A stretch of DNA of 64,000 nucleotides from positions 425,372 to 489,371 of the forward strand of contig CALMBO010000029.1 of assembly GCA_937860055.1 (NCBI GenBank), written 5' to 3'. Within the stretch, counting starts at the first letter, position 1, and each line of letters opens with the position of its first letter. A model generated the notes under the pieces. It was not told the origin of the DNA. It saw only the letters and a program-made list of their open reading frames with translations, and ran no database searches. Positions 25,362 to 62,351 of the stretch are shown here, piece by piece. The position numbers and the translations under genes are program-made. The stretch comes from an uncultured Verrucomicrobiota bacterium (GTDB lineage Bacteria > Verrucomicrobiota > Kiritimatiellia > CAIQIC01 > Lenti-01).

Positions 25362-28300
25362 CTACGGGAGGCCCACCCAGACGCGGTAGCTGCGCTGCGT
25401 GGCCACCGGCCAGCCGCTGTTGGTCGCCGCGCCGGTGTCGACGAACAGATGCCGGTTCGTGAAGGGCTCCGTGTTGGTCCACGCGCCGTTCGCCTGGAAC
25501 GCGTTCCAGGCCTGCGGGGCATTGCTCAACGCGCCGTCGAGGAACTCGATCCGGTAGGCGCGGTTGGAGGCCGCCGCAACGGCGATCTGCGCCCCGGAAA
25601 CGCTCCGCACATCCGTCATCCGGAAGACGGCTTCTGCGTCCGTCGGATCAAGCCCGGCCACGTACATCTGCCAGACCGCCAGCGTCCCGTTCGAGGCGCT
25701 CTGCATCGCCAGGTCTTCGTAATCCTGCGCGCTGTGCTCGCCCGGATAGTAGCCGTCCAGCCACGCGTAGGGAACCGCCGCCGGCGAATTCGATGTCGCC
25801 GTCGCGGGCGCCGCGACCTCCTCGATCTTCAGGTACTGCACGATCGCGCCGTCGGCATAGATATTGGTGCCGCCGCCATCGGAGGTGAAGCCGACCCAAA
25901 TGCCGTTGGCGTAGAGGTCGGCCCCCGTCTTCGGCGCGGCCCACAACGCCGCCTCCGCATCGCTGGAAGCCAGGTTGCGCACGTTGTAGTAGTTCGTCGC
26001 GGTGTTCGCGAGCCCCAGCAGGCTCCAGCATCCCGCCAGGTCGTAGGTGTCGGAAGCGCCGGAATGATCGCCGTCGTTCACAAACAGCGCAAACGCCAGC
26101 ACCGCGTCCTTCCCGTCCGCCACCGCGCCGGCCCCCTCGTATTTGGCCACGGCGAAGATCTTGCTGTTGTCCCCCCCGCCCGTCCGGCTCAGGAAATACT
26201 GGTTCGCGCTCTGCAGCGCCGGACTGCTGTGCCGCGCCCCGTTCACCCGGCCGTGCCATTGCGCCATCTCGCGCGACGCCGCGTCGTAGGGCGGCTCGCC
26301 CCAGACTCGCAGCTGGTTCCACTTCTTGAAATGCGGGATGTACTTGCCGAAGTTCAGCTCGAAATTGCTGAAGCCCGTCCACTTGTCCGCCGTCCCCGCG
26401 TACGGTCCGATGCCCTGCTCCTGGCCGTAGAACACCATCGGCACGCCCGCCACCGCCGAGACCATCGCGTAGCGCGACGCCGTCACCCAGGGATCGCTCC
26501 ACGGCAGCACCTCGTCATGCCCCGTCAGGTTCAGCAGGATTGCCCCGCCGCCGTACGCCGTGCGCCGGTTCTCCAGCTGCATGCGCAGCGTCCCCGGATC
26601 GCTCACGTGCGCCTGCGTGAATTGGAACACCATGTTCTCGTTCAGGATGTCGAAATGCCGGTTCGAGCGGTAGCCCGGCACGCCGCCGTCCAGCGTCTCC
26701 GCCATGAACATGAAGTTCCACTTCAGGTTCCGCGTGCGGTTGATGATGTATTCCCACAGCTGCGGCGGCAGCCCCTGCCCGAAGTCGCACCGCAGGCCGT
26801 CGATGCCGTAGTCGTCGTAGGCGATGCCCTTGGCGTCCACCTGCCCCGGCCGGTTGGTCAGGCCGTGGCCCGTCTTCTCCAGCCAGTATTCCGGATACCG
26901 CCCGACGTACGTCCACAGGTCGATCGTGTCCTCGCTCATCCCCGCGAAGTCGTACACGTCCTCCTCGTTCAGGTAGTCGCTGTTGTTGTCGGGGTTGTGC
27001 CGCACCAGGCAGGAATAGGCCCCGTAATAGAGCTCCGCCACGTCCGCCCACTTGCCGAAGTCGCCGCGGTCCGGCGCCGTCGCGATGTCGTTGCTCCACG
27101 CCGTGTGGTAGTACGTCGCCGGCGCGCCGTAGTCCTCCCAGTGGGAGTACCACCCCGGCTTGAACCAGCCGATGCGGTCGTCCTTGTTCGTGCAGAAGCC
27201 CAGCTCCACACCCATCTCCCCGAATTCCGCGTCCCACGACGTGTGGTTGAACACGCCGTCGAGCATCACGTTGATCGTGCCGACGTGGTTCGTGCTCCCC
27301 AGCCGGTTCGTGCCCCGGTCGCAGTACGCCACAAAGTTCGTGAACTCCGCCAGCGCCCCCTCCTCCGTCCCCGCCCGGCCGAAGAAATGGTTCACCGAGA
27401 AGTAGTCCCGCGTCGCGTACGGGCTCCCCGGATTGTACCGCGTGGCGGTGTCCGGATCGTTCTCCGACCGGTCGTAGCCCGCCGGATGGATCGGCTGGAA
27501 CCACAGGCAGTTCGCCCGGATCTTGTCGAGATACTCGATGCTGAACTCGTTGAAGGTGTTGAGGTTCGTCGCGTGCTGCGGATCGATCAGGTCGTCGAAC
27601 GTGCTCCGCCCGCTCTCCGTGTTGTTGCTGGCCTTCACCGTCAGCGTGTTCAGCTCGTACATCGTCTGCTGCAGCACCTTCTTCGGCGAGATCACGATGG
27701 CATGGTCGCGGCGGCCCTCGGACGTGTACCAGGTCCAGTTCGTCGTGCCGGCCTGGTTGGTGGTCTGGTAGCGCGCCGTCAAACGGTAGGCCCCGCACTG
27801 CCCCGCATTCGTGCTCCACTCGTACGTCCCCGTCCCGCCGTTGTACGCCATCGGGAACGCCGCGAAATAGGCGCCCGCGTCGTTCGTCGTGACCAGGTTC
27901 CCGTCCGGCGGCCGGATGCCGTCCGGCACCCCGTCCTCGTCCCAGTCCGCGTCCGCCAGGTGCCGGCGCCCCACGTTGCAGAACACTTCCACGTTCACCG
28001 ACCCCGCCGGCGGCGTATAGCTCACCGTGATCGCCGCGGTCTCGCTCTCCGCTTCGTCGAGGAAGAACTTCGTCGTCGTGTAGTCCGCGTTCTGGCCGTT
28101 GACCGTCAGCGCGCCCGAGCCACCCGTGTACATGCGGTATTCGAAGATCTCGTCCGCCGCCCCGTCGGTCTGGTACTCCGCCTTCCGCACCACCCCGTTG
28201 CCGCCGTTCGTCGCCGAATTCCACGCGGCGACCTGGTACTGCACCAGCGCCTCCAGGTTCGTCAGTTCGTCGTCCTGGATCGTGGCCACCCACCACATCG

Positions 28301-34339: not shown

Positions 34340-35371
34340 CTAGCGGCCGGCCGCCGCCAGGCGGGCCTTCACGGCCTCCAGCTCCGCCTCCGCGTCGCCG
34401 ATCAGCTCGGAGAAGATCTCCTCCATCGGCTGAATCCGATCCACCAGCCCCACGCTTTGCCCCGCCATGCAGGAACCGCGGTCCACGTCGCCCTCGACCG
34501 CCGCCTTGCGCAGCCCCCCCATCCAGAAGCTCTCGACCTTGTACTGAGCCTCCGCATGGCCGATTTGGCCCGCATCCATCAGTTTCAGCAGCTCCAGCTG
34601 CAGCCGGCCGAATTCCTCCGTCGACTTGTTCTTCAGCGCCCGCACTGCCACGATCGGCAGCCGCTTGTCGTATTCCGGCGTGCTCATCGCCTCCCGCGCC
34701 CGGGCCTTCACGAAACGCTCCTTCAGCTTCGGATGGGCGCTGCACTCGTTGCTCATCACGAACCGCGTGCCCATCTGCACCCCCGCCGCGCCCATCAGCA
34801 GCATGTGCGCGATCATCCGCCCCGTCGCGATGCCGCCGGCCACGAACACCGGCACCCCCGGCTTCTTGAACAGCACCTGCTGCAGCAAAATCATCAGCGA
34901 CACGTGGCCGATATGCCCCCCCGCCTCGCTGCCTTCCAGGATCAGCCCGTCCACCCCGAAGCGCACCATCTGCTCCGCGATCGAATCCGTCGAGGCGAAG
35001 GACAGCACCTTCTTGCCCGCCGCCTTCATCTGCGCCACGTCGTTCTTCTTCGGGAAATTGCCCGCGAAGATCACGGTGGACGCCTTCGATTTCAAGACCG
35101 CCTCCTTGTGCGCGGGGAAATTCGGCGCGATGGTCACGAGATTGACCGCGAAGGGCTTGCGGGTCTGCGCCATGCACTTCTCGATCTCCGCCGCCAGCGC
35201 CTCCCCGGGCATGTTCCCCGCCGCCAGGCAGCCGAAGCCCCCCTGGTCGCCCACCGCCTTCACCAGCGCCGCGTCGCTGATCCACGTCATCGCCCCGCAC
35301 ATCACCGGATAGCGCACCCCCAGGAAGTCGCGCCCCTCCTGCCACAAGCCGTCTAAACAGGTCGTTTTCAT
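34340..35371 (-). CDS. NMO-family FMN oxidoreductase (enoyl-ACP reductase FabK / nitronate monooxygenase-like)
   Basis: 343 aa (YPVMCGAMTWIS...LVKAVGDQGGFGCLAAG, ILEGSEAGGHIG). Confidence 0.8.
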   Translation of the reverse strand: MKTTCLDGLWQEGRDFLGVRYPVMCGAMTWISDAALVKAVGDQGGFGCLAAGNMPGEALAAEIEKCMAQTRKPFAVNLVTIAPNFPAHKEAVLKSKASTVIFAGNFPKKNDVAQMKAAGKKVLSFASTDSIAEQMVRFGVDGLILEGSEAGGHIGHVSLMILLQQVLFKKPGVPVFVAGGIATGRMIAHMLLMGAAGVQMGTRFVMSNECSAHPKLKERFVKARAREAMSTPEYDKRLPIVAVRALKNKSTEEFGRLQLELLKLMDAGQIGHAEAQYKVESFWMGGLRKAAVEGDVDRGSCMAGQSVGLVDRIQPMEEIFSELIGDAEAELEAVKARLAAAGR

Positions 35372-36001: not shown

Positions 36002-37048
36002 CTACTTGCCGCGCTCCAGCCGCAGGTGGGCCGCCATCAGCTCGCCGGGATTCGTCTGCGCCGCCAGCAGCGACAGCTCGCCGCACAGCACCGTCGCCGC
36101 GCAGATCAGGGCCAGGCGCCGCGCGTTCTGCCCCGGCTCGCGCTTCTCCAGGCAGCCCAGCCCGCGCAGGTTGTCCTCCACGAACGGCAGCCCCTTCCCG
36201 TTGCCCACCGTCCCCACGATCAGGTTCGGCAGCGTCACCGAAAAATAGAGGCCCTCGTCCCCCCGCGCCTCCGCCAGCGTGAACCCCTGCGATCCTTCCA
36301 CGATGTTCGCCGCGTCCTGCCCCGTCGCCAGGTAGAAGGCCAGCAGCATGTTCGCGAAGTGCGCGTTCGCGCTCCGCAGCCCGCCGGCCAGCGTCGTCCC
36401 CACCCAGTTCTTGCGCCAGTTCAGCTCGGCGATCTTCTCCGGGGTCGTGTGCAGGTAGCGCTCCACCAGCCGCCGCGGTATCGTCGCCTCCGCCACCGTG
36501 TACTTGCCCCGCCCCAGGATCCCGTTCACCGCCGAGGCCTTCTTGTCGCAGCAGTAGTTGCCCGAAATGGAGCCATACGCGCATTCGGGCCGCTTCTCCA
36601 GGATCCACGCCAGCATCGCATCCGCCGCCCGCGTGGCCATGTTGTGCCCCGCCGCGTCGCCCGTCGTGAATTCGAAGCGGATGTAGACCAGGTGCCCCGC
36701 CACCTCGAAATGGATGTCCGCCAGCCGCGCGAACCGGCTCGTGCCCGCCGCCACCTGCGCCAGGGCCTCCCGCTCGGCGTCCACGAACCGCACCAGCGCC
36801 AGCGCCCCCTGCGCGCCGGGCGCGTCCACCAGCACCGACCGCGTCATGCGTTCGTCGAAGATCGTGGCGCGGATGCCGCCGGCCTGCGCCGTCACCCGCG
36901 CCCCGCGCTCGACCGATGGCCACAGCGGCGTCTCGAAGGTCGCCAGCGGCACCTCCGTTTCGCACTCCGCCTCGGGCCCCGCCAGCCGCACCGGGCCGAC
37001 CTTCCGCATCGGGACCGCGGCCACCAGGTTCTCGTCGTTGGGCTTCAT
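36002..37048 (-). CDS. HMG-CoA reductase, class I catalytic domain (short form)
   Basis: ENLVAAVPMRKVGPVRLAGP...EVPLATFETPLWPS..RGARV...GGIRATIFDERMTRSVLV matches class-I ENVIGYMP...VPMATTEGCLVAS...DGMTRAPVV. Further matches are TGDAAGHNM (DAMGMNM), NAHFANMLLAFYLATGQDAANIVE and LIVGTVGNGKG. Confidence 0.85.
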   Translation of the reverse strand: MKPNDENLVAAVPMRKVGPVRLAGPEAECETEVPLATFETPLWPSVERGARVTAQAGGIRATIFDERMTRSVLVDAPGAQGALALVRFVDAEREALAQVAAGTSRFARLADIHFEVAGHLVYIRFEFTTGDAAGHNMATRAADAMLAWILEKRPECAYGSISGNYCCDKKASAVNGILGRGKYTVAEATIPRRLVERYLHTTPEKIAELNWRKNWVGTTLAGGLRSANAHFANMLLAFYLATGQDAANIVEGSQGFTLAEARGDEGLYFSVTLPNLIVGTVGNGKGLPFVEDNLRGLGCLEKREPGQNARRLALICAATVLCGELSLLAAQTNPGELMAAHLRLERGK

Positions 37049-43860: not shown

Positions 43861-46833
43861 CTACGGGGAGGTCAATCCGATGCGGATGATCTTGCGCGAG
43901 CCGGAAACCGTCGTGATTGTGACGTTCGAGCCGCTCACCGTGTAGTGCACGCCCGCCGTCAGGTTCGAGAAGACCAGGGCCGCCCCCGTCACCACCGTGT
44001 CCGCCCCGTACACCGTTCCGAGCGAGTAGCCGCCCGGCACGGTGAAGAGGAAGTTGCCGGTGCCGTTCAGCGCCAGCGTCACGGGCGGAATGTCCACGTC
44101 CGCCGGCGCCGACACCGAAGGCGTCACGCTGTTGCTCGCGATGGGCAGCGCGCCGGCATCCAGCGCCGTCGCCGACAGGAAATAGGTGCCCGCCGTCGCC
44201 GGCGTGAAAGAGAACGCGCCGGTTCCCGAATCCCAGTTGTAGATCACGTCGGCGTCCGCCGGATCCTTCAGGACAAAGGCCCAGCTCGACGCCGTGCCGT
44301 TCTGCAGCGTGATCGTGTAGTTCATCTGCACGCCCACCGTGCCCGTCGTGTCGCCCACGATGGACACCGACGGGACAACCGCCCCTTCGGGATGGACGCC
44401 CGGCGTCATGTCTTCCGTGTTGGCCACGGCCGGAATCGTCCATTCCGAAGCCGTCCACGTCGGGTTGCCCTGGAAAACGCCGTTGTTCCGGAACGCACGG
44501 CGATCGGTATACTCCCAGGCCATTCCCGTGCCGTCCTGGCCGATCACGCCGTGCGCATCCTCCAGGATGCCGCTCACGCTGTTGCCGCCGCTGAAGAGGA
44601 AGTAGCCGTCATCGCCGTTCCCGTCCACCGTGCCGCTGGTATGGTTCGGCGCGGGGGACGTCGGATACGCCGTCGCGAAGTTCGTGCTGCCGGCGATCAC
44701 GTAGGTCGAACCGGCCGCCACCGTGCCCGTCAGCGCGATGTTGCCCCACGTGGTGCCGTTGATCTGGCGCGCCAGATACCAGCTTCCCGCCGTCAGGTCG
44801 ATGCTGGAAACTCCCGCGTTGTAAAGCTCGACAAAGCGCCCGCCCGTCGCGTTGTTGCTCGGGTCGGCCACCTCGGAAATGATCAGGACGCTGGGCTCGT
44901 GGTACACGAACTCCACCGTCACCGTCACCGGCGAGGCCGGCATGACGAACGTGTTCCCGACCACCGGCGCCGGCGTCATCGTCTCGTCCAGCACTGTGAT
45001 CGTGCTGACCAGGTAGCTGGCATCCGGAGTGGCGGTGATGGCAACCGTCGTCCCTTCGATGGCCTGTCCCGCCGGCGTTGTCGACACCGTGCCGTTTGTC
45101 GGCGTCGTGATCGTGATCGCATAGGGCGTTTTCACGCTGAAGTTGATCGAATTCGTCACGCTCGCCGCGGTGCCGTCCGTCGCCACCACCGTCGCCGAAT
45201 AATCGCCCGCCGGCGCCGTCGCCAGGATCGTGAATACGTTGTCCACCGCCGTGTAGTACGACCCGCCCAGCGTGCTGCTCCAGGAATAGCCGTAGGGCTC
45301 CGTCCCGTTCGCCGCCGTCGCCGTGATGGCCTCGCTCACCCCCTGCGTCACGGCGAACCCGCCCGTCCTGTCGAAGGTCACGTTGAACGTCGCCGCGCCG
45401 AACCAGATCCCGATGTCGTCGATGTTCACCCGGTCGCCGTCGCCGGTGAGCGTCAGGAACTGGACATAGGTCATGTTCGCCGGAATGGTGTCGATGACGC
45501 CCTCCATCAACGTCGCGCCGCTAGGATCGTAGGCGGCTTCGCCCACGTCGGTCCACGACACGCCATCCTGGCTGACCTGCACCTTGAAAGTTGTCGTGTT
45601 GTCCGTGCCGTAGTCGGCATACAGGAAGCTGATCTTGCTGATGGGCTGGGCAAACGCCTCGGCCGTGGCGATATAACCGGCGTTGGTGCTCAGGTAGCGG
45701 ATGCGGACCGAGGCCGCCCCGTTCTTCGGATCGCTGGTGGTCGTCCCCCGCAGCGCACCGTCGTGCCGCATCAGGACGCCGCTGACCGTCGAAGTGCCGG
45801 GAGCATAGCTGCTCAGGCCCGTCACGGTTTCGAAATCGATCAGGGTGTCGGGCGCCACGTAGACTTCGAACAAAACCGTCACCGTGACGGCCGAGGCCGG
45901 CATGGTGAAAGTGTTGCCCGTCAGCGCCACCGGATTCAATCCCTCGTCCAGCACCGTGATGCTGGCCACGCGGTACCCCGAGTCCGGCGTCGCCGTGATC
46001 GTCACGGTTTGGCCTTCGATGGCCTGGGTTGGCGGATCGGTCGTCACCGTGCCGTTCGTCGGCGCCGTGACCGTGATCGCATAGACAGGCACCACGTTGA
46101 ACGTGATGGCGTTGGTCACGCTCCGGGCGGCGCCATCCGTGGCCACCACCGTCGTCGTGTAGGCGCCCACCGGCGCGGCCGAGCTGATGTTGAACATGTT
46201 GTCGTTGGTCGCGTAGTAGCTGGAATCCAGCGTGCTGCTCCACGCAAAGCTGTAGGGTTCCGTCCCGTTCAATGCCGTCGCCGTGATCGCCGTGGCGGAG
46301 CCTTCAGGCACCAGGAATCCATCGGTCCGGTCAAACGTCACAAGGAAATCGGTCGCGCCGGCGGTGATTTGCACGCCATCCACGCCGACATTGCCGGCAA
46401 CCTTGGTCACGTAGTTGAACCGTACATAGCGCGACGCGTTCTTCAGGACATTCGTCACCGGTGCGGCCGTGGTGGGGATGCCGCTGCCGTTGTAGGCCGC
46501 CACGTCGGTCCAGCTCGCGCCATCCGTGGATTCCTCCACCTTGAAGACATAGGCGCCGCTGAGTGTGTTTGCCCGGAGCCAATACGAAACCTCGCCGGGC
46601 GCGCTGTCGAAGTTGATGGTCAGGATGTCCCCCGTCGTGTCGAATTTGGCCGCGCCGCCGCCAACGCCGTCATAACTGGTCGCATAGTCCGTTCCCAAAC
46701 CCGACTGCGTCCATCCCGTCGGCAGGAAGCTGTTCGTCCAAGGCCCCGACCAGCTGGTGGGAAGCGTCGCCTGCCCCATCGCCGTCGCCGCCAACATCCC
46801 GACACACGCCAACCCAACCAACCACTTTTTCAT
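43861..46833 (-). CDS. large exported protein: N-terminal jelly-roll-like domain shared with the downstream paralog, two approx 165-aa InlB-B-repeat-like modules, lamin-tail domain (LTD), C-terminal beta-rich region
   Basis: 990 aa with signal peptide MKKWLVGLACVGMLAATAMGQA. The duplicated module begins ATDFLVTFDRTDGF...ITATPDSGYRVASITV...MPASAVTVTVLF and recurs as AATFNVTFDRTGGF.... The LTD is SVLIISEVADPSNNATGGRFVELYNAGVSSIDLTAGSWYL...STYVIAGS. Confidence 0.8.
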   Translation of the reverse strand: MKKWLVGLACVGMLAATAMGQATLPTSWSGPWTNSFLPTGWTQSGLGTDYATSYDGVGGGAAKFDTTGDILTINFDSAPGEVSYWLRANTLSGAYVFKVEESTDGASWTDVAAYNGSGIPTTAAPVTNVLKNASRYVRFNYVTKVAGNVGVDGVQITAGATDFLVTFDRTDGFLVPEGSATAITATALNGTEPYSFAWSSTLDSSYYATNDNMFNISSAAPVGAYTTTVVATDGAARSVTNAITFNVVPVYAITVTAPTNGTVTTDPPTQAIEGQTVTITATPDSGYRVASITVLDEGLNPVALTGNTFTMPASAVTVTVLFEVYVAPDTLIDFETVTGLSSYAPGTSTVSGVLMRHDGALRGTTTSDPKNGAASVRIRYLSTNAGYIATAEAFAQPISKISFLYADYGTDNTTTFKVQVSQDGVSWTDVGEAAYDPSGATLMEGVIDTIPANMTYVQFLTLTGDGDRVNIDDIGIWFGAATFNVTFDRTGGFAVTQGVSEAITATAANGTEPYGYSWSSTLGGSYYTAVDNVFTILATAPAGDYSATVVATDGTAASVTNSINFSVKTPYAITITTPTNGTVSTTPAGQAIEGTTVAITATPDASYLVSTITVLDETMTPAPVVGNTFVMPASPVTVTVEFVYHEPSVLIISEVADPSNNATGGRFVELYNAGVSSIDLTAGSWYLARQINGTTWGNIALTGTVAAGSTYVIAGSTNFATAYPTSPAPNHTSGTVDGNGDDGYFLFSGGNSVSGILEDAHGVIGQDGTGMAWEYTDRRAFRNNGVFQGNPTWTASEWTIPAVANTEDMTPGVHPEGAVVPSVSIVGDTTGTVGVQMNYTITLQNGTASSWAFVLKDPADADVIYNWDSGTGAFSFTPATAGTYFLSATALDAGALPIASNSVTPSVSAPADVDIPPVTLALNGTGNFLFTVPGGYSLGTVYGADTVVTGAALVFSNLTAGVHYTVSGSNVTITTVSGSRKIIRIGLTSP
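44899..46356. repeat. two approx 500-bp homologous coding repeats separated by about 460 bp inside the 43861..46833 CDS
   Basis: Protein residues approx 160-325 and 480-645 are about 60 % identical. Confidence 0.65.
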
Positions 46834-54339: not shown

Positions 54340-54759
54340 TCAGATGATGCCCTGTTGTGCGAGGATGAAATAGATCAGCAACGCGCCCGCCGACAGGATG
54401 ACCAGGATCAGCTGCGTCTGGAAGTTGTAGTCCGAACGGCGACGGGCCCGGATGCGCCCCAAGACGAGCCCGGCGATGCCGATGGCCAGGCCCGCGGCCA
54501 GGATCGGCAGGAGCGAATGCATCCCCGCGCCACCGGCGGCTTCCGCCGTCGCGGCGGACTGGTCGATCTGCATCAGTTGATGCTTCCGCTGCTGGGCGTC
54601 CGCCAGCGACAGGAAGGCGAAGAGGCAGATGACAAGGACGGGATAGACCAGCAGCGTGACGTAGCGGAAAATCTTCGCCCAGATGTCCGGCTTGTTCTGG
54701 CGGCGATCCGGCATTCCCTTCTTGTAGGGCGCCCCTTGTCCAACAGATGGCTGTTCCAT
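54340..54759 (-). CDS. small hypothetical membrane protein (2 TM)
   Basis: Start at the internal MEQPSVGQ, which has an AAGGAAG RBS. Two hydrophobic helices are present. The upstream extension looks non-coding. Confidence 0.5.
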   Translation of the reverse strand: MEQPSVGQGAPYKKGMPDRRQNKPDIWAKIFRYVTLLVYPVLVICLFAFLSLADAQQRKHQLMQIDQSAATAEAAGGAGMHSLLPILAAGLAIGIAGLVLGRIRARRRSDYNFQTQLILVILSAGALLIYFILAQQGII

Positions 54760-54987
54760 GCGCGCTTCCTTTGTCGTGCGGTCCGGTTCCAAAACCACGC
54801 TGCGATTATGGGAGATGGCCCTGCGCATTGCAACAGGTTTGGAACGGAATCCGCATGGGATCCGAATCCCGGGCCGAAACCCGGGAAGGCTCCCCAGGGA
54901 TTCCCAGCGCCGGGTTGACTCCCCCCGGGCCACGGGGTAGCTTGGAACTCCAGTGGAAATCCGGCGGAAAGAGAGAAACGGTCGCAT

Positions 54988-57318
54988 ATGGGCTTGAAGG
55001 AATCGTTCGAGGCGCGCTTCTTCCCTCTCACCTACGGGCGCGTGGCGCTACTGGCCTTCCTCTGGCTGCTGGTGGGGTTCGCCCTCGGCACCGAAACGCT
55101 GATGGGACCCGTGCGCTGGACCACCGACTGGGCGCGCAGCCACGGCTGGACCTGGCAGCGGGAGGAAGCCAATGTCCGCGCCATCATCGCGCTTTTCGTC
55201 GCGGGTTCGTTCCTGGTCTCCCTGTGCCTGGCCCGGATCCTCGATCGCTCGCGCCGCCGGGACGTCCGCCTCGGCATCCCCCTGCTGGCGATGGCCGCGG
55301 CCGGAGCCTCGCTGTTCTTCTGGCTCAACCCGCAGCGCTTCGCCTCGGATGGAGCCGACTGGCTGGAAAACGATTCGGGGGCGGAATTCACCGTCGGCCC
55401 CTATCCCGCCGGGGACCGCATGGCCGAATTGAAGCACCGCGGCTTCACCGCCGTCATCTCGCTGCTCCATCCCGCCGTGGTCCCGTTCGAACCCGCCCTG
55501 CTGGCCGAAGAACGGGCCGCGGCGGAAAAGGCCGGCATCGAGCTCATCCACCTGCCCATGCTGCCGTGGGTGAGCGAAAACCGCGAAATGCTCGACCGGG
55601 CGCGCGGCCTGGTCGGCACCGGCGGCCGCTACTACATCCATTGCTATCTCGGCAAGGACCGCGTCACCCTGGTGCGCCAGGTGATCGAAAAAGCGGGCGG
55701 CACGGTCGCCGGGACCGGGACGGAAGGCGAAGGCGCGCCGCCGCGCGTCCGCGACCTGCGCGACCTTCCCCGCTTCGAGCGCGGCCCCTTCACCGAGCTG
55801 GAACCGGACGTGTGGCTGATTCCCCTCCCGACCGACGAGGAATACCTCGGGTTCGTGCTATCGGCGCGCCCCCGGAACATCGTGTCGCTCCTGAATCCGG
55901 ACAACGGGGATGACCGGAGCTGGATCGAAAAAGAACGCCGGATGCTGGAAGCCGCCGGCGTGGCGTTCACCGTCGAAGGAATCGGCGCCAGACCGTTCTC
56001 GCCCGAAACCGTCCTCTCCCTCGCACGGAAGGTGCGGCAGATGGAACGGCCTGTCATGGTCCACGGCTTCCAGACGCCCTCGGTGGAGAGCGACGCGTTT
56101 TTGCAGGCCTACCGCTCCGACCGCCCTCCCCTCCCCCCGTCGCTGTTCGCAGAGCCGCTCGCCGTCGGCACCGTCGAGGTGATTGCTCCGAACATCGCGA
56201 AGGGCGGAATCCCGCTGGAACCCGGCGCGTTGGCCCAGCTGGCGGAGCGCGGCGTGCGCCATTTCATCTATTGCGACCGGATCGAGGCGGTCTCGGCCGG
56301 GATCCAGTCCGACATGGCGAAGGCGGCCGGCGTGGAGTGGTCGGTGTGGCCGCCGGACGCGGCGGCGCCGGCGGATCTCGCGGCCGGCGGGCCGTGGTAT
56401 GTCTACGGCCCCTTCGCCGACAGGCGGACCCACGAGCTCGCGGCGGCCCATGGCCCTGCGATCCCGGAAGTGCTGGCGCCGGGGCTTGCCCGCGCCGCCG
56501 CGGAAGAGGCGCCGGATGCGGAAGCCGCCTGCGCCCCGGCGGCGCCTTCCCTGCGCGATGGGTGGAAGCCCTGGGCGCTGGCCCAGCGGGACCGCCTCCT
56601 GCCGCCGCTGAAGATGTGGCTCCTGCTGTCGCCCTTCCTCCTGCTGTATGCGGGATCCTGCGCCGCGTGGGCGGGGTGGCTCAGGCAATCCAAAGGCGTC
56701 CGCACCCCCTATACGCGAAAGATCTTCCACTTCGCCATCTTCACCATGGCGGGCCTTCTCCAACTGGTGGCCGGCGTCCAGGCCGTGATGCTGTTCGGCG
56801 GCATCACCAGCCTCTGCGTGCTCTATGCCGTGTTCCGCGGCGCCGGCTTTCCCTTCTACGAGGCCATGGCCCGCCCCACGGACGAACCGCACCGGACCTT
56901 CTTCATCCTGGTTCCGCTCGCCACGACCGCGCTGGGCGGGTTGCTCTCCAACCTGTTCTTCGGCTCCTGGGCGGCGGTCGGGTATCTGGTGGGCGGCTGG
57001 GGCGATGCCGTCGGCGAACCTTTCGGGACGGCCTTCGGCAAGCATCGCTATCGCGTTCCGTCGCTGCTGGGCGTGCGCGTCACGCGGAGCCTCGAAGGTT
57101 CGGCGGCCGTCTTCGGGGCCGGCTTCCTCGGAGCGATGCTGATCCTCGTCCTGGGCGGCACCCCTCCGGCCACCGCCATCGTCGCGGCGCTGGCGTGCGC
57201 GGCCGCCGGCATGGCCGTGGAGGCGGTATCCAGCCATGGCCTCGACAACCTCACGACGCAACTGGCTTCTTCCGCAACGGCTTGGGTCATTCTTGAAATC
57301 TGGCGGTTTTCTATTTGA
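54988..57318 (+). CDS. multidomain membrane protein: N-terminal 3 TM + protein-tyrosine/dual-specificity-phosphatase-like domains (one with an intact HCxxGxxR P-loop) + C-terminal CTP-dependent polyprenol kinase-like (dolichol/phytol kinase family) TM domain
   Basis: 776 aa. HCYLGKDRV is a C-X5-R PTP motif. A second DSP-like unit, VMVHGFQTPSVES, lacks the Cys. The C-terminus GGWGDAVGEPFGTAFGKHRY...TRSLEGSAAVFGAGF matches the GDGLAExVGRRFG...KSWEGS signature of VTE5/Sec59 polyprenol kinases. Confidence 0.65.
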   Translation: MGLKESFEARFFPLTYGRVALLAFLWLLVGFALGTETLMGPVRWTTDWARSHGWTWQREEANVRAIIALFVAGSFLVSLCLARILDRSRRRDVRLGIPLLAMAAAGASLFFWLNPQRFASDGADWLENDSGAEFTVGPYPAGDRMAELKHRGFTAVISLLHPAVVPFEPALLAEERAAAEKAGIELIHLPMLPWVSENREMLDRARGLVGTGGRYYIHCYLGKDRVTLVRQVIEKAGGTVAGTGTEGEGAPPRVRDLRDLPRFERGPFTELEPDVWLIPLPTDEEYLGFVLSARPRNIVSLLNPDNGDDRSWIEKERRMLEAAGVAFTVEGIGARPFSPETVLSLARKVRQMERPVMVHGFQTPSVESDAFLQAYRSDRPPLPPSLFAEPLAVGTVEVIAPNIAKGGIPLEPGALAQLAERGVRHFIYCDRIEAVSAGIQSDMAKAAGVEWSVWPPDAAAPADLAAGGPWYVYGPFADRRTHELAAAHGPAIPEVLAPGLARAAAEEAPDAEAACAPAAPSLRDGWKPWALAQRDRLLPPLKMWLLLSPFLLLYAGSCAAWAGWLRQSKGVRTPYTRKIFHFAIFTMAGLLQLVAGVQAVMLFGGITSLCVLYAVFRGAGFPFYEAMARPTDEPHRTFFILVPLATTALGGLLSNLFFGSWAAVGYLVGGWGDAVGEPFGTAFGKHRYRVPSLLGVRVTRSLEGSAAVFGAGFLGAMLILVLGGTPPATAIVAALACAAAGMAVEAVSSHGLDNLTTQLASSATAWVILEIWRFSI

Positions 57319-57368: not shown

Positions 57369-58496
57369 ATGAGAGCGTGGTCCTCGCCAGTTCAAACCGG
57401 AAGCTACGTCACCGATGTCGTCCTGTGCGCCTTCTTCATCCTGTTTGTCTTCATGGTCCTTGTGACGGCCTACGCCTTTCTCCGCCGCCTGCGCAACAAT
57501 GCCCTCCGCGACCGGATGTTCGCCCATACTCCCGCCTATTACCACCTGATCCAGTCCATCCAGGCGGGACAGATCGTTTCCGACGGGGAAATCCAGGCGG
57601 AAATCCCCCGGTCGGATTTCGGCGTTTTCGAGCTCTATCTCCGTGAACGGCTGGTCACGACGGGCACAGATCCCTTCGCCGAGCGCCACATGGCCAACGC
57701 CTGCGGATTCCTGCCCGCGGTCCGGAAGAAGGTCCGCCGGCACCGGAACTGGGCAAAGGCCGCCCACCTCCACATGCTGGCTCTCCTGCGGGATCCGGCC
57801 GATCTGGATCTGTTCCTCGATGTCCTCGAACACGACAACCATCCTTCCTGCATCTTCGCCGCCGCCATCGGACTTGCGCTCGGAGGGCACATCGCCTCGC
57901 TTCCCCGCATCGTGGCCCGGCTCTACAACCCGGCCACCCCCAACCGCGACCAGCTGCTCCTGGTCCTGGCCGCCTACGGCCCCGGCCGGGCGCCGGATTT
58001 CGTCGGATTCCTCCCCTCGCCCGACCTGCCCGATGCGGCGGCGGGCGTGCTGGCGGACATCCTCGGCTCGTGGAACCACGCCCCGGCGAAAAACGCCCTG
58101 GAACTCCGCCTGGCCTCGGCCAGCGATGGCGACCTGAAGAGCCACCTGATCGCAGCGCTGGAAATCGTGGGCGACCGCTCCACCTGCGGCGCGCTGCGGC
58201 CCTATCTCCAGGATCCCGATTTCCGCGTGCGCCTCAAGACGATCAATGCCCTGGAACATCTGGGCGGCCGGGAATTCCTGCCGGAAGCCAGGGCCCTGAT
58301 GGACGACCCCACCCCCTGGGTGCGGCGCAATGCCGCCGAAGTCCTCCTGCGCATGGGGGACGAAGGGCGCCGGATCCTGGAAGCCATGGCGGTTTCTTCA
58401 AACGATGAACAGCGCCCGGTCGCGAAACTGGCGCTGGCGGAAGACCGGTTCGGCCGGATCCGCGGGAGGTTCAGGCATGCGCAGCTTCCTGCTTGA
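57369..58496 (+). CDS. membrane-anchored HEAT-repeat protein (exopolysaccharide-locus accessory)
   Basis: N-terminal TM VVLCAFFILFVFMVLV followed by PBS-lyase HEAT-like repeats (PWVRRNAAEVLLRMG). It overlaps the GT2 start by 20 nt. Confidence 0.65.
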   Translation: MRAWSSPVQTGSYVTDVVLCAFFILFVFMVLVTAYAFLRRLRNNALRDRMFAHTPAYYHLIQSIQAGQIVSDGEIQAEIPRSDFGVFELYLRERLVTTGTDPFAERHMANACGFLPAVRKKVRRHRNWAKAAHLHMLALLRDPADLDLFLDVLEHDNHPSCIFAAAIGLALGGHIASLPRIVARLYNPATPNRDQLLLVLAAYGPGRAPDFVGFLPSPDLPDAAAGVLADILGSWNHAPAKNALELRLASASDGDLKSHLIAALEIVGDRSTCGALRPYLQDPDFRVRLKTINALEHLGGREFLPEARALMDDPTPWVRRNAAEVLLRMGDEGRRILEAMAVSSNDEQRPVAKLALAEDRFGRIRGRFRHAQLPA

Positions 58497-59889
58497 TTTC
58501 CTCTACGGATTCCAGTGGTTCATCTTCTGGTTCTTCGTCGCCCTGCACATGTTCTACATGCTGTTGCTCGCGGTTTCGGCGCGCACCTCCTGGCAGCATG
58601 TGCTCCGGCAGAAGATCGACCGCAGCCTGCGGTTCCCCAAGGGCTTCGACCGCCCCTTCTCGGTGCTGGTGCCGTGCTACAACGAGGAGGTCTCCATCGT
58701 CGAGTCCATCCGCGCGATGCTCTCGCTGGACTACCCCGAGTTCGAGGTGATCGTCTGCAACGACGGCTCCGCCGACCGGACGCTGGAACGCCTGGTCGAC
58801 GCGTTTCAGCTCCAGCCGGTCGACGTCGAGGTCGAACGCCGCTTCCCGGGAAAGCCGATCCGCGCGGTGTACTTCTCCCAAGTGGATCCCCGCCTCATCG
58901 TCGTCGACAAGGAAAACGGCGGCAAGGCCGATGCGCAGAACACCTCCGCCTGCTTCGCCCGCTATCCCTATGTCTGCGCGACGGATGCCGACTCCCTCCT
59001 GGCCAGCGACAGCATGAAGCGCCTGATGCGCCGGTTCGTGGCCGTCCCGGACATGGTGGCGGCCGGCGGCGTCGTCCGGCTCGCCAACGGATGCGTGGTC
59101 CGCCACGGCCAGATCCTCCAGGCCCGCATGCCCCGCGGCACCCTGGAAGCCATCCAGGTCGTCGAATATTTCCGGGCCTTCCTCTTCGGCCGCCTCGGCT
59201 GGTCCGAAATGGACATCATGATGATCATCTCCGGCGCCTTCGGGGTGTTCCGGCGCGACTTCCTGGAACGCGTCGGCGGCTGGAACACCAAGGCCATCGG
59301 GGAGGACATGGACCTGGTCCTGCGAATGCAGCGGCAGATCAGCCACGACCGGAAGCCGTACAAGATTGGCTTCGTCCCCGATCCCCTCTGCTGGACCCAG
59401 GCCCCGACCACCCTTTCCGACCTCTCCGCGCAGCGCGACCGCTGGCAGCGCGGGCTCATGCAATGCCTGTTCGGCAACATGGACATGCTGTTCAACCCCC
59501 GCTACGGATCGGTCGGCTTCGTGGGCTTCCCCTACTTCCTCGTCTTCGAGATGTTCGGCGCCTTGATCGAACTCGTCGGCATTCCCATCACCATTCTCTG
59601 CTACCTCCTGGGCATCGTGAACATGCACTTCCTCCTGCTCTTCCTCGCCGTGGCGCTGATGTGGGGCGTGGGAATCTCCTTCACCTCCATCGCGCTCGCG
59701 GAGATTTCCCACCGGCGCTACGAGGGATGGCGCGATTTCCTGGCGCTGTTCCGCGCCGCCGTCCTCGAGAATTTCGGCTACCGCCAGCTCCATGCCTTCT
59801 GGCGGCTGAAAGGCATGTTCCGGTACGTGTTCGGAGACCACAAGGATTGGGGCTCGATCCGGCGGACGGGCTTCAATCCGGCATCATAG
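58477..59889 (+). CDS. family-2 glycosyltransferase, processive synthase type (PgaC/IcaA/BcsA-like)
   Basis: Start at MRSFLLDF. Motifs are VPCYNEE, DAD (CATDADS), GED and QRDRWQRG (QxxRW). TM helices lie at both ends. Confidence 0.85.
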   Translation: MRSFLLDFLYGFQWFIFWFFVALHMFYMLLLAVSARTSWQHVLRQKIDRSLRFPKGFDRPFSVLVPCYNEEVSIVESIRAMLSLDYPEFEVIVCNDGSADRTLERLVDAFQLQPVDVEVERRFPGKPIRAVYFSQVDPRLIVVDKENGGKADAQNTSACFARYPYVCATDADSLLASDSMKRLMRRFVAVPDMVAAGGVVRLANGCVVRHGQILQARMPRGTLEAIQVVEYFRAFLFGRLGWSEMDIMMIISGAFGVFRRDFLERVGGWNTKAIGEDMDLVLRMQRQISHDRKPYKIGFVPDPLCWTQAPTTLSDLSAQRDRWQRGLMQCLFGNMDMLFNPRYGSVGFVGFPYFLVFEMFGALIELVGIPITILCYLLGIVNMHFLLLFLAVALMWGVGISFTSIALAEISHRRYEGWRDFLALFRAAVLENFGYRQLHAFWRLKGMFRYVFGDHKDWGSIRRTGFNPAS

Positions 59890-59898
59890 GAAACCACC

Positions 59899-61140
59899 AT
59901 GAAAACCGCATTCCAGGCGATGGGACAGGCGGCAGCGGTCGCCGCCGCGGTGCTGGCGATGGCGATTCCCGCCGCCGCCCGGGAACCCGCCGAAAGCTAC
60001 GAAAGCCGCCTCCAACAGGCGACCGAATACCGCCTCGCGGGCAAAACCCGGGAAGCCGTGGAAATCTTCAACCAGATGCTCGAGATCAAGCCCGAGGATG
60101 CCGATGCGCTGGTCGGCCGGGGCTTCTGCCGCCTGCGGGACGGCAACCCGGACCTGGCCCTCGAGGATTTCCGGAAAACCATCGCCGTTTCCTCCAACTA
60201 TGTCGATGCCTATGTCGGCGCCTCCGCCGCCTATCGCCGCATGGGCCAGCCCCGGCGCTCCCGGGAGATCCTGGACGATTGCGCCAAAGCCTGCGCCGGC
60301 CGAACCAACAGCCTGAAGTATCTCGCCGAATCCGCCTGGCGCGAAGGCCACTTCCAGCTGGCCCGCTCCCTCGATGCCCGCCATCCCCGGAACCCGGACC
60401 GCACCCTCGTCCCCCGCCCCAACACCGTCTACCTGACCTATTCACACGACTGGCCCAAATACGGCGATGAATGGGATTCCATCGGCTTCACCTTCGCCCG
60501 GCGGGAACGCCCGGACCTTTCGTGGTCGCTCGGCGCCAAGGAATACAGCCGCTACGGCACCACCGACTTCGATCTCTCCGCCGGCCTGACCTACCGGCAC
60601 CGCGATTGGCTGGGTGCCTCCTACAACGGCGTCTTTTCCGACGACCCCGGCTTCCTCGCCCGGCAAAAACACCGCCTCGAACTGACTTCCGGGCTTTGGC
60701 GGGGGGCCAGCCTCGGCGTCGGCACGGATCTGTCCTACTATGACGGCCCCCGCTGGTCCCGCCGCGGCCTGCTCGACCTGCGGCAGGGCATCGGCAACTG
60801 GTTCGCCAAGGCGGGCCTCAGCGCCGGACAAGACTCCAACGACAAGGACGTGTTCAGCTACTCCGTCGGCGCCGGTTATGAAAAAGAATCCCGCTACGCC
60901 ATCGCCCTTTCCTATGGAAACGGCAACGAAACCGTCGAAATCGAAACCGCCGATGGTTTCGATTTCCGGGACGACGACGTGGAATCCCTCTCCCTTTCCT
61001 GCCGCTATTATTTCAAGCCCGAGATCGGCGTGATGTTCGGCGGCTCCCACGAATGGCGCAACGGCGAGGATTTCCGCGACGGCGTGTTCCTCTCCCTCTT
61101 CACCAGCTTCCCGGGCCATTTCTGGCCGTTCTTCCGCTGA
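59899..61140 (+). CDS. TPR-containing outer-membrane beta-barrel protein (YaiO/PgaA-like exporter candidate)
   Basis: Signal peptide, N-terminal TPR repeats (AVEIFNQMLEIKPEDADALVGRGFC...) and a C-terminal region of alternating-hydrophobic strands ending in an aromatic residue (FWPFFR). Confidence 0.55.
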   Translation: MKTAFQAMGQAAAVAAAVLAMAIPAAAREPAESYESRLQQATEYRLAGKTREAVEIFNQMLEIKPEDADALVGRGFCRLRDGNPDLALEDFRKTIAVSSNYVDAYVGASAAYRRMGQPRRSREILDDCAKACAGRTNSLKYLAESAWREGHFQLARSLDARHPRNPDRTLVPRPNTVYLTYSHDWPKYGDEWDSIGFTFARRERPDLSWSLGAKEYSRYGTTDFDLSAGLTYRHRDWLGASYNGVFSDDPGFLARQKHRLELTSGLWRGASLGVGTDLSYYDGPRWSRRGLLDLRQGIGNWFAKAGLSAGQDSNDKDVFSYSVGAGYEKESRYAIALSYGNGNETVEIETADGFDFRDDDVESLSLSCRYYFKPEIGVMFGGSHEWRNGEDFRDGVFLSLFTSFPGHFWPFFR

Positions 61141-61235: not shown

Positions 61236-62351
61236 ATGGACAAGCCGGAGGAAATGGCGGAAACAGAAGGGGCGAGCCTGGGCGAACGGCTGGAATCCCT
61301 GCACCGGCAGCTCCTCCGGGAAGTCCCGCAGGTGGACCGGATCGGATGCGCCCTCTATGACCGCGGGGAGGATCTGCTCAAGACCTTCGTCAACAGCACC
61401 CTCTCCGGCGAGGCGCTCAAGGGCTATGAATTCCGGATGTCCGACAGCCATGCCTTGAACGACATGGCCCAAAGCGGACGCCGGCGCCTGCTGGCCGACA
61501 TCCCCGCCTCGCTCTCGCCCTCCACCGCCCATTCCCGCTGGGTGCTGAAGGAAGGCTACCGCTCCTCCCTGACCGTCCCGATGTACGGCCAGGGCGCCTT
61601 CATCGGATTCCTTTTCTTCGATTCCCGGCGGCCCGACGCCTTTTCCCCCGCCGACCAGCGACAGCTCCTGATCTATGCCAACCTCATCTCCCTGCTGGTT
61701 TCCTTCGAACTCCTCTCCATCCGGGCGCTCGCCGGCTCCGTGGACATGGCGCGCGCGTTCTGCGACCTGCGCGATTTCGAAACCGGCGCCCACCTCGAAC
61801 GCATGTCCCGCTATTCCCGCCTCATGGCAAAGGAAATCGCCCCGGACCTGAGCCTCTCCGACGAATTCGTCGAGCATGTCTTCCTCTTCTCCCCCCTCCA
61901 CGACGTCGGTAAGATCGGCATCCCCGACCACATCCTCCTGAAACCCGGCAAGCTGGAGGGCGAAGAGTGGGAAACCATGAAGTCGCACGTGGCACGCGGC
62001 TGCGCGGTCATCGACAAAATGGTCGAGGACCTCTCCCTTCACCGCCTGCCGAACATCTCCATCCTGCGGAACATCGTTGAATTCCACCACGAATATCTGG
62101 ATGGCAGCGGTTACCCGAAAGGAGCGTGCGGCGAGGATATCCCCCTCGAGGCCCGCCTCACCACCGTCGCCGACATCTTCGACGCCTTGACCTCCCGGCG
62201 CCCCTACAAGGACGCCTGGCCCGTCGAAAAAGCCCTGGCTGAACTCGACCGGCTTGCCACCGGGGGAAAGCTCGATCCCCTCGCCGTCGGGGCGCTCCGG
62301 CGCCGCGAAGCGGACGTCCGCCCCATCCTCGAAAAATACGCCGAATCCTAA
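61236..62351 (+). CDS. GAF-HD-GYP domain protein (c-di-GMP phosphodiesterase candidate)
   Basis: N-terminal GAF-like domain. The HD motif is LFSPLHDVGKIGIP and the GYP motif is HHEYLDGSGYP. Confidence 0.8.
   Translation: MDKPEEMAETEGASLGERLESLHRQLLREVPQVDRIGCALYDRGEDLLKTFVNSTLSGEALKGYEFRMSDSHALNDMAQSGRRRLLADIPASLSPSTAHSRWVLKEGYRSSLTVPMYGQGAFIGFLFFDSRRPDAFSPADQRQLLIYANLISLLVSFELLSIRALAGSVDMARAFCDLRDFETGAHLERMSRYSRLMAKEIAPDLSLSDEFVEHVFLFSPLHDVGKIGIPDHILLKPGKLEGEEWETMKSHVARGCAVIDKMVEDLSLHRLPNISILRNIVEFHHEYLDGSGYPKGACGEDIPLEARLTTVADIFDALTSRRPYKDAWPVEKALAELDRLATGGKLDPLAVGALRRREADVRPILEKYAES

Follow-up and report, generated by a model that had tools for sequence, protein, structure and literature searches.

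What might a protein that couples a phosphatase-like region to a lipid-kinase-like domain be doing in an operon for exopolysaccharide synthesis? The question is raised by a single gene at positions 54988..57318 (+) of the 64,000-nucleotide stretch of DNA analysed here (the window), which belongs to contig CALMBO010000029.1 of an uncultured Verrucomicrobiota bacterium. The gene starts with ATG and encodes a 776-residue protein, the fusion protein, composed of an anchor of three transmembrane (TM) helices, three units resembling dual-specificity phosphatases (DSPs) with a protein-tyrosine phosphatase (PTP) fold, and a kinase-like module of eight TM helices. Synthase-dependent exopolysaccharide (EPS) systems, such as those for cellulose, poly-N-acetylglucosamine (PNAG), alginate and Pel, are thought to run without lipid carriers, and current models have envelope lipids recycled by PAP2/BacA phosphatases together with the ATP-dependent kinases DgkA/DgkB. 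We regard the fusion protein as an accessory subunit, not described before, of a synthase-dependent EPS system that is widespread and uncharacterized and also comprises a HEAT-repeat protein, a PgaC-like family 2 glycosyltransferase (GT2) and a TPR/YaiO outer-membrane protein. We propose, with a confidence that stops a little short of even, that it serves this system as a lipid-handling subunit, using cytidine triphosphate (CTP) to re-phosphorylate a released lipid alcohol.

The open reading frame (ORF) had been delimited at exactly these coordinates, strand and length in an earlier note made from the sequence alone, which raised the possibility that a frameshift or assembly error had joined two genes. 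The fusion is genuine. We rule out an assembly or frameshift artefact because the protein is present as an identical copy on 16 contigs, the same architecture is encoded in independent assemblies from several phyla, and the motifs of both halves are near-invariant across 64 full-length homologs. These homologs, of 730-790 residues, were drawn from the 186 relatives returned by a database search with the fusion protein and form the alignment set used below; among the homologs listed, pairwise identity to the query is 42-52% across most of its length. In the N-terminal half YYxHCYLG(K/R)DR is near-invariant; in the C-terminal 250 residues TRKIFHF, GGWGDAxGEPxG, RSLEGS and EAxSxHGxDNxTxQ are. In the fusion protein itself, HCYLGKDRV occupies residues 218-226 and GGWGDAVGEPFGTAFGKHRY...TRSLEGS residues 670-706. 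The third-position GC content of the gene (0.86) is the same as that of its neighbors.

Annotation gives little guidance to this family. Neither the whole protein nor any of its five pieces gave a supra-threshold match in Pfam or NCBIfam, and sequence and profile searches of the PDB with the whole protein and the queries A1 and A2 returned nothing meaningful. Cluster look-ups returned no label other than "hypothetical protein" or DUF442, and the automatic annotation of JGI calls the full-length proteins "phytol kinase". The architecture was not found described in Pfam, NCBIfam or the literature searched, in keeping with the earlier remark that it was not a recognized one.

The N-terminal anchor (residues 1-113; 54988..55326, +) contains three TM helices by hydropathy, and the orientation of the protein was predicted by the positive-inside rule from the net charge (K+R minus D+E) of each segment over the 64 homologs. 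The N-terminal tail (+1.25) and the loop between TM2 and TM3 (+2.47) are positive, the loop between TM1 and TM2 (-0.30) and the 20 residues after TM3 (-0.73) negative; in the C-terminal module, the loop after the first helix, TMa, which carries RKxxH, has a charge of +3.89 and the loop with GKHxY...RSLEGS one of +3.02. The predicted topology thus places the N-terminus in the cytoplasm, the soluble region in the periplasm and the motifs of the module on cytoplasmic loops, so that the three TM helices would be followed by about 400 periplasmic residues before the chain re-enters the membrane as the 8-TM module. The occurrence of a single cysteine in the soluble region of 38 of the 64 homologs agrees with a periplasmic location, as does the order of domains in one distant member, P0077, in which a GGDEF domain, assumed to be cytoplasmic, precedes the three TM helices and the PTP region. 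This member (L093:1454-4285) has an N-terminal TM block and the GGDEF domain ahead of the 3-TM anchor; the GGDEF signature looks degenerate (FDDIT in place of GGDEF), and the variant hints at a direct cyclic di-GMP (c-di-GMP) input to the PTP-like subunit.

A conserved motif, GFxxGTxTLxGPVRW, follows TM1 (residues 30-44; 55075..55119, +), is predicted to lie at the periplasmic interface, and is also present in the distant members P0002, P0077 and P0081. The catalytic unit begins about 15-20 residues past TM3, beside this motif. The earlier note had reasoned that its interpretation would fall if the phosphatase faced the opposite compartment with no access to lipids. The first half of that situation does obtain, the phosphatase being periplasmic and the kinase site cytoplasmic by prediction, but lipids of the outer leaflet could still be reached by the catalytic unit because its tether to TM3 is so short.

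The soluble region was modelled with AlphaFold (AF2) as residues 118-500, from 24 homologs, and the model (predicted local distance difference test score, pLDDT, 86) resolves three alpha/beta units. Unit 1 (residues ~129-245; 55372..55722, +), the nearest to the membrane, has a PTP/DSP fold in the predicted model, with Foldseek probabilities of 1.00 against the PDB entries 3gxh (DUF442), 6e3b/6byf (Siw14) and 1xri (AtPFA-DSP1), and likewise against PRL-3, Tk-PTP, 4kyq (LSF2), DUSP26 and KAP, over about 110-130 aligned columns each. By profile, the assignment is sub-threshold: the best curated match of unit 1, BLH_phosphatase/DUF442, scores 19.4 bits against a cutoff of 26.1, the TIGR01244 "sulfur transferase" family matches the phosphatase-like region below threshold at E = 9e-4, and none of 24 soluble-region members scanned with Pfam and NCBIfam rose above threshold. 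The weak matches in other members are all of DSP type (Tc-R-P, PTP-NADK, PTP-SAK and DSPc), and the assignment is secured by the Foldseek fold match.

Unit 1 alone of the three retains an HCX5R P-loop, HCYLGKDR (residues 218-225; 55639..55662, +), with Cys219 and Arg225 in a CxxGKxR arrangement. H, C, L, G, D and R of this loop are invariant in the alignment, and HCYLG[KR]DR is found in 105 of 131 P-loops of the family. A second conserved loop, LPMLPWVSEN (residues 189-198; 55552..55581, +), with invariant M, L, P, W and N, sits 21-30 residues before Cys219 and from its position is a candidate equivalent of the WPD/D-loop; E/D197 within it is a possible general acid. The P-loop of AtPFA-DSP1, with Cys150, Lys151, Arg152, Lys154, His155 and Arg156, has the same CxxGKxR pattern, and that enzyme hydrolyses the pyrophosphate of inositol pyrophosphates without a general acid (PMC9038691). 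Unit 1 thus resembles the PFA-DSP/Siw14 and DUF442 (3gxh) proteins in its fold, its P-loop and its lack of an obvious WPD aspartate. The fusion protein differs from PFA-DSP/Siw14 in being membrane-anchored, periplasmic by prediction, and furnished with two degenerate copies behind unit 1, and the sequence similarity of unit 1 to these proteins falls below every Pfam threshold; its substrate cannot be a cytosolic inositol pyrophosphate. We infer that unit 1 is an active Cys-based phosphatase or phosphotransferase at the outer leaflet.

The earlier note had counted one intact and one degenerate phosphatase-like unit. Both are there, as is the intact P-loop, but profile-profile comparison (hhalign) raises the number to three homologous DSP-fold units, two of them degenerate. 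Unit 2 (residues 262-381; 55771..56130, +) aligns with unit 1 at 96.5% probability (E 8e-10), VHCYLGKD being matched by VHGFLSPS; in the fusion protein itself the P-loop position reads VHGFQTPS and has neither Cys nor Arg. Unit 3 (residues 382-492; 56131..56463, +) is an alpha/beta unit in the model and aligns with unit 2 at 84% (E 7e-6); its segment GGPWYVYGP reads WYVYGP at the P-loop position, again without the catalytic Cys and Arg. Units 2 and 3 are, by these residues, pseudo-phosphatase units. The number of units varies in the family: forms of ~980-994 residues (P0002, P0005, P0006, P0039; L008:8001-10955) carry extra degenerate DSP-like copies, which lie between unit 1 and the kinase-like module, and two-unit forms of ~385 residues are common in operons with HEAT and GT2 genes and no kinase, for example L125, L131, L137 and L140.

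An Ala/Pro-rich linker of low conservation (residues 493-540; 56464..56607, +) leads to the C-terminal module (residues 541-776; 56608..57315, +). The AF2 model of the module has a pLDDT of 93.9, and its top three fold matches in the PDB are all CdsA (4q2e/4q2g), with probabilities of 0.96-0.99, the next match falling to 0.20. In a local profile alignment, the segment GWGDAxGEPxGxxxGKHxY...RSLEGS of the family lies on VWGADSGAYMFGKLFGKHKL...GKTWQGF of Escherichia coli CdsA, and D673 pairs with a CdsA Asp. This segment includes the Asp that the cytidylyltransferase alignment conserves throughout and that yeast Dgk1, a diacylglycerol kinase that depends on CTP and has a Cds1-like domain, cannot do without (D177A; PMC2459266). 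Dolichol kinases and other CTP-using enzymes share the motif DxxAxxxGxxxGx8KKTxEG on a cytoplasmic loop (PMC5853391), of which the module carries a relaxed form, DAVGEPFGTAFG-x14-TRSLEG (residues 673-704; 57004..57099, +). The pattern D..[AG]...G...G-x14-(T/K)(R/K)(S/T)xEG occurs in 122 of 180 module members, with a 14-residue spacer in 108. A further motif, RKxxH, is found in 177 of the 180, its R, K and H being invariant in the alignment, and reads RKIFH in the fusion protein (residues 577-581; 56716..56730, +, on the cytoplasmic loop between the first two helices, a and b). In PfPolK, a characterized prenol kinase with eight TM helices, Arg29, Lys30 and His33 form a "charged clamp" (PMC10849223). 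RKxxH, DxxGxxxGxxxG...RSxEG and ExxSxHGxDN are all predicted to face the cytoplasm, the orientation that the use of CTP requires.

The module therefore shares with dolichol kinase (Sec59/DOLK), VTE5, PfPolK and Dgk1 an array of about eight TM helices, the R-K-x-x-H clamp, and a cytoplasmic-loop D...G...G...(K/R)(S/T)xEG with an invariant Asp; it differs from them in its 14-residue spacer, in TRS in place of KKT, in giving no PF01148 match, and in being bacterial and fused or adjacent to a periplasmic phosphatase-like protein. From fold and motifs we conclude that the module probably belongs to the CdsA/dolichol-kinase/Dgk1 superfamily. Within it, the module looks more like the kinases than like CdsA, and is at most a candidate member of any named family. 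A kinase is preferred over a cytidylyltransferase because RKxxH matches the PfPolK clamp, because Dgk1 belongs to the superfamily, and because the KR...KD signature of CdsA is gone. The earlier call of a polyprenol kinase thus stands as regards the superfamily of CTP-dependent lipid kinases and CdsA. It was not borne out by Pfam or NCBIfam, so that the outcome which that note had said would refute it, a failure to match by hidden Markov model, literally holds for these two collections, and the assignment is rescued by fold and motifs.

More distant searches add breadth and no named family. In the representative library 1709 relatives of the module reach E <= 1e-3 and 157 reach E <= 1e-30; stand-alone proteins of ~245 residues are numerous among them. 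The module gave no PF01148/COG0170-type profile match, and its profile found nothing among PDB sequences. A distant relative, P0257, aligns collinearly with PF01148 at an insignificant E value (0.19), and a search seeded with this protein, the most divergent module relative, as a bridge to annotated families returned just three matches.

Evidence that the two halves act together comes from the ways in which they are joined and parted. Among the best 80 of 205 genome loci with the module, spanning at least seven phyla, the module is fused to a PTP-like region in 22, adjacent to one (within 300 nt) in 21, near one in 3, and without such a partner in 34. The converse survey, of 80 of 253 metagenome loci with the PTP-like region and 8 earlier loci, left 76 that could be evaluated: 22 fused, 10 with an adjacent module, 2 with an adjacent DAGK_cat kinase, and 42 with no kinase partner. 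In L006 and L007 a PTP-like gene of 496-499 codons is followed directly by a gene for a 249-residue protein, which in L006 is 61% identical to the module (E 3e-79) and in L007 matches it by tblastn (E 2e-58). In L092 and L130, whose PTP proteins are 62% identical, the slot of the module is filled by a translationally coupled lipid kinase of the YegS/Rv2252/BmrU/DgkB family (DAGK_cat). This replacement by an unrelated lipid kinase is the strongest indication that the activity required of the partner is lipid phosphorylation, and it suggests that the phosphatase-like protein yields a lipid alcohol. Together, fusion, fission and the YegS/DgkB-type replacement strongly support a functional link between the halves.

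Further details of distribution emerged from the same surveys. Fused and adjacent cases were found in metagenome-assembled genomes only; cultured genomes, among them those of Adhaeribacter, Cesiribacter and Pedobacter glucosidilyticus, have the module alone, with no PTP-like partner, and plasmids searched by tblastn with the module yielded nothing. The idea that a divergent phosphatase-like partner is hidden upstream of partner-less modules was rejected, the upstream genes not being phosphatase-like. In one metagenome-assembled genome of the Planctomycetes (L091:6204-9219), a ThiD (hydroxymethylpyrimidine phosphate kinase) gene overlaps by 4 nt a PTP-like gene that is followed by an adjacent 244-residue module, with no HEAT, GT2 or YaiO gene within 7 kb; a PTP-module pair can hence exist outside an EPS operon.

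Downstream of the fusion gene, on the same strand, lie the genes of the presumptive synthase. After 50 nt comes a HEAT-repeat protein with one N-terminal TM helix (57369..58496, +; PF13646, E 1.5e-21), then a processive GT2 synthase (58477..59889, +), a TPR protein with a YaiO outer-membrane beta-barrel, putatively the export porin (59899..61140, +; TIGR04390 OMP_YaiO_dom, 46.6 bits against a cutoff of 32, and TPR families), and a GAF-HD(HD_5) protein that is probably an HD-GYP-type c-di-GMP phosphodiesterase (61236..62351, +; PF13487, E 1.5e-26; a NosR-family phosphodiesterase match was below cutoff). The adjacency to an exopolysaccharide synthase asserted in the earlier note is therefore correct. 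The GT2 matches Glyco_tranf_2_3, Glyco_trans_2_3 and Chitin_synth_2, and its translation contains CATDAD (with DxD), GED and QRDRW, the motifs of a processive synthase; its best NCBIfam match, PgaC_IcaA (E 6e-42), reaches 144 bits against a cutoff of 422, so that it is at most distantly PgaC/IcaA-like.

The same gene set surrounds homologs in Acidobacteriota, Gemmatimonadota and other lineages. The HEAT gene is kept beside the GT2 gene in L004, L005, L007, L008, L009 and L092, and the TPR/YaiO protein, a component for outer-membrane export, in L004, L005, L007, L008 and L092. At least one of HEAT, GT2 and YaiO accompanies the PTP-like gene in 43 of 56 loci with adequate flanks, and a GT2 gene lies near 22 of 46 PTP-associated modules as against 1 of 34 partner-less ones (Fisher p = 4e-6), from which it follows that the PTP-like protein is a core component of the operon and that the kinase joins through it. 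The operon resembles PgaABCD, Bcs, Pel and NfrAB in its GT2 with QxxRW, its TPR and beta-barrel outer-membrane protein, and the c-di-GMP genes nearby. It differs from them in a GT2 far below the PgaC equivalog cutoff, and the gene tables showed neither a PgaB-type deacetylase nor BcsB; to our knowledge, none of these systems has a HEAT-repeat protein and a triple-DSP protein, with or without a lipid kinase, as partners. No description of the operon was found in the literature searched. In homologous operons a response-regulator gene often comes first, and GGDEF or REC-HD genes stand on the flanks; GGDEF, HD-GYP-type, REC and PilZ genes lie near them, and neither the GT2 nor the HEAT proteins showed a receptor domain.

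Taken together, the pairing of halves, the predicted topology and the operon can be accommodated by a three-step scheme. Unit 1 would use Cys219 to strip a membrane lipid of the outer leaflet of a phosphate or phospho-head group, converting either a phospholipid or lipid anchor to diacylglycerol or a polyprenyl (di)phosphate to polyprenol. The neutral lipid alcohol would then flip across the membrane, and the C-terminal module would re-phosphorylate it with CTP at the inner leaflet. Since the predicted active sites are on different sides of the membrane, the two would work vectorially and not as a futile cycle. Units 2 and 3 are non-catalytic and might bind the growing polymer or touch the TPR protein. 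The lipid might originate when the polymer is released from its lipid primer or anchor, when a phospho-head group moves from phospholipid to polymer (the logic of BcsG, OpgB and LtaS with DgkA/DgkB, by another fold), or when a lipid phosphate is simply hydrolysed. The domains, the fusion and its apparent novelty are as the earlier note described them; the polyprenol cycle is a possibility, the replacing kinase and Dgk1 pointing at least as much to diacylglycerol, and action of the phosphatase on a lipid and not on the glycan is likewise a proposal. By analogy, diacylglycerol is favored by the DgkB/YegS replacement and the precedent of Dgk1, polyprenol by the PolK-like clamp and a pyrophosphatase-type P-loop that would suit undecaprenyl pyrophosphate (C55-PP).

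Such a scheme has parallels. In BacA/PgpB with DgkA, LtaS with DgkB, and OpgB, BcsG or EptA/MCR with DgkA, a reaction at the outer leaflet frees diacylglycerol or a polyprenol derivative and a kinase at the inner face recycles it, and the logic proposed for the fusion protein is the same. The outer-leaflet enzymes of those pairs are of PAP2, BacA or alkaline-phosphatase type and not Cys-based DSPs, and their kinases are the ATP-dependent DgkA/DgkB, which, unlike the module, are not fused into one polypeptide with their partners. The mcr determinants are described as genetically linked to dgkA or pap2 (PMC7559476). A bolder version of the scheme, which we regard as unlikely, makes the DSP unit the first Cys-based, PTP-fold periplasmic enzyme to act on a membrane lipid in a polysaccharide machine. 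It would either cleave a lipid anchor or primer from the PgaC-like polymer, or transfer a phospho-head group from phospholipid to polymer through a phospho-cysteine intermediate; in both cases diacylglycerol or polyprenol would be freed, for the fused CTP-dependent kinase to recycle.

Several observations weigh against a lipid-handling role and keep our estimate of it below even. On the side of the module, its resemblance to the fold of CdsA is a distant one (TM-score 0.34, E about 1e-2), and hhalign of the module profile against E. coli CdsA gives 20% probability over a local stretch of 35 columns. The strict DxxAxxxGxxxGx8KKTxEG motif occurs in 0 of 180 module members, and neither the module of the query, nor 27 members, nor 10 distant stand-alone relatives match Pfam or NCBIfam. 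On the side of unit 1, no general-acid residue was identified. As to the partnership, 34 of the 80 modules stand alone in unrelated contexts and about 55% of the PTP-like loci (42 of 76), Longimicrobium included, have no kinase nearby, so that the phosphatase-like protein works without the kinase in many genomes; the DAGK_cat replacement, moreover, is probably a single event that has since been maintained. Finally, every member of the family is known from sequence and predicted structure, and we know of no PgaC-like synthase that needs a lipid carrier or primer.

The chief rival to a lipid-handling subunit, unlikely in our judgment, holds that the DSP-like region acts on the polysaccharide itself, as a glucan-phosphatase-like enzyme or as a largely non-catalytic scaffold or conduit from the synthase to the TPR/YaiO porin, analogous to BcsB or the C-terminal domain of PgaB, the module being a mere anchor or an independent housekeeping lipid kinase. 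Two of the three units are degenerate, the longer forms multiply the degenerate units as expected of a binding or spacer array, and the glucan phosphatase LSF2 is among the fold matches; the absence of a kinase partner from more than half of the PTP-like proteins, and the occurrence of the module by itself, also fit this view. The near-invariant CX5R of unit 1 argues instead for catalysis, GT2 polymers carry phosphate only if it is added afterwards, and without a lipid substrate common to both halves it is difficult to account for the repeated fusion or tight adjacency and for the substitution of a different lipid kinase.

An undecaprenyl cycle, in which a periplasmic Cys-phosphatase would act on undecaprenyl pyrophosphate or undecaprenyl phosphate and a CTP-dependent kinase on undecaprenol, is a special case of the lipid-handling scheme and shares in its probability; taken for itself it is unlikely. 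Here the RKxxH clamp and eight TM helices recall PfPolK, the JGI label on the full-length proteins, although automatic, names a prenol kinase activity, the CxxGKxR P-loop is of the pyrophosphate-cleaving PFA-DSP/Siw14 type, and the site would be periplasmic, as for the C55-PP phosphatases BacA and PAP2. No Pfam or NCBIfam match relates the fusion protein to BacA or PAP2, so that a role on C55-PP would be analogous. The kinase that replaces the module in L092 and L130 points elsewhere, being of the YegS/DgkB family, whose known substrates are diacylglycerol-type lipids and not polyprenols, and we know of no synthase-dependent GT2 system that uses undecaprenyl carriers. Nor do the mevalonate genes favor it: an HMG-CoA reductase gene (36002..37048, -; PF00368, E 5e-85) lies some 18 kb from the fusion gene, and the gene tables of the related loci examined showed no mevalonate gene. 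We therefore reject a functional link to the mevalonate pathway, near whose genes the earlier note had placed the fusion gene. Near the HMG-CoA reductase gene lies that of an NMO/IMPDH-like flavin mononucleotide enzyme (34340-35371, -), so that mevalonate-pathway-type genes do occur in this bacterium.

That the module is instead a cytidylyltransferase like CdsA, CarS or YnbB, making a CDP-lipid primer or anchor for the GT2 polymer that the phosphatase later cleaves, we consider improbable. CdsA supplies the sole solved structures that match the module, the aligned segment is the catalytic Asp region of CdsA, and CdsA paralogs have a precedent in the synthesis of a glycolipid, MPIase. Global superposition on 4q2e is nonetheless poor, and by inspection the C-terminal CdsA signature SxxKRxxxxKD...HGGxxDRxD is not kept, the family having VEAxSxHGxDNxTxQ (ExxSxHGxDNxT at its core) without KR...KD. 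Conversely, the RKxxH clamp, reported for a kinase, is not seen in E. coli CdsA, and a true kinase fills the slot in L092 and L130. Least probable is that unit 1 is no phosphatase but a DUF442-type sulfur transferase or a carrier of persulfide, or else a sensor or redox domain in the periplasm that regulates the synthase, as its sub-threshold profile matches (BLH_phosphatase/DUF442 and TIGR01244) and its top fold match, the DUF442 protein 3gxh, might suggest, for no sulfur-metabolism genes occur in the operons examined, the P-loop is of the phosphate-binding HCxxGKxR type, and the partnership with a kinase points to phosphate chemistry.

If the lipid-handling role is correct, an EPS cluster has a lipid-recycling step built into it, as in no described polysaccharide system. 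The family is widespread: it reaches at least seven phyla by record title, its module occurs in 205 genomes and its phosphatase-like region at 253 metagenome loci. By prediction, it links a Cys-phosphatase fold in the periplasm, within an EPS operon, to a lipid kinase of CTP type that faces the cytoplasm. Should the coupling be functional, biofilm-matrix synthesis would have an additional, new accessory activity, the PTP fold a new use, and bacteria possibly their first CTP-dependent lipid kinase whose role is defined. Were the bolder version to hold, with a Cys-based enzyme acting on a lipid in the polysaccharide machine, a "synthase-dependent" EPS pathway would have an obligatory lipid-linked step, and bacteria would return lipid to the inner leaflet by dephosphorylation, flipping and re-phosphorylation.

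Several of the related operons depart from the common layout. In L005 (5331-7994) a single gene call of 887 residues comprises the GT2 synthase, the TPR region and the YaiO barrel; it is topologically odd, combining an inner-membrane synthase with an outer-membrane barrel, and may reflect a missed stop or a frameshift. In L006 (339-6600) phage-type genes (capsid PF03864 and Minor_tail_Z) lie immediately upstream of the TPR/YaiO gene, and HEAT and GT2 are absent from the locus, so that a prophage may have split the operon. A 656-residue Sulfatase-family protein (PF00884), which we take to be of the LtaS/OpgB/phosphoethanolamine-transferase type, is encoded beside the operon of L008 (2663-4633), and a small PilZ protein near that of L092 (11580-11948); the two may take additional parts in head-group transfer and in the reception of c-di-GMP.

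In the window, a divergent ORF (54340-54987, -) directly adjoins the start of the fusion gene; it contains hydrophobic segments, matches nothing in Pfam, and is called as 139 residues in L001 and as up to 215 residues here. Scans for promoters and terminators gave counts at or below the shuffle expectation and were uninformative. The large ORFs of the window include 25362-30176 (-) of 1604 residues, 20830-23979 (-) of 1049 residues, and 43861-46833 (-) of 990 residues, the last of which contains F5/8 type C, Flg_new_2 and LTD domains.

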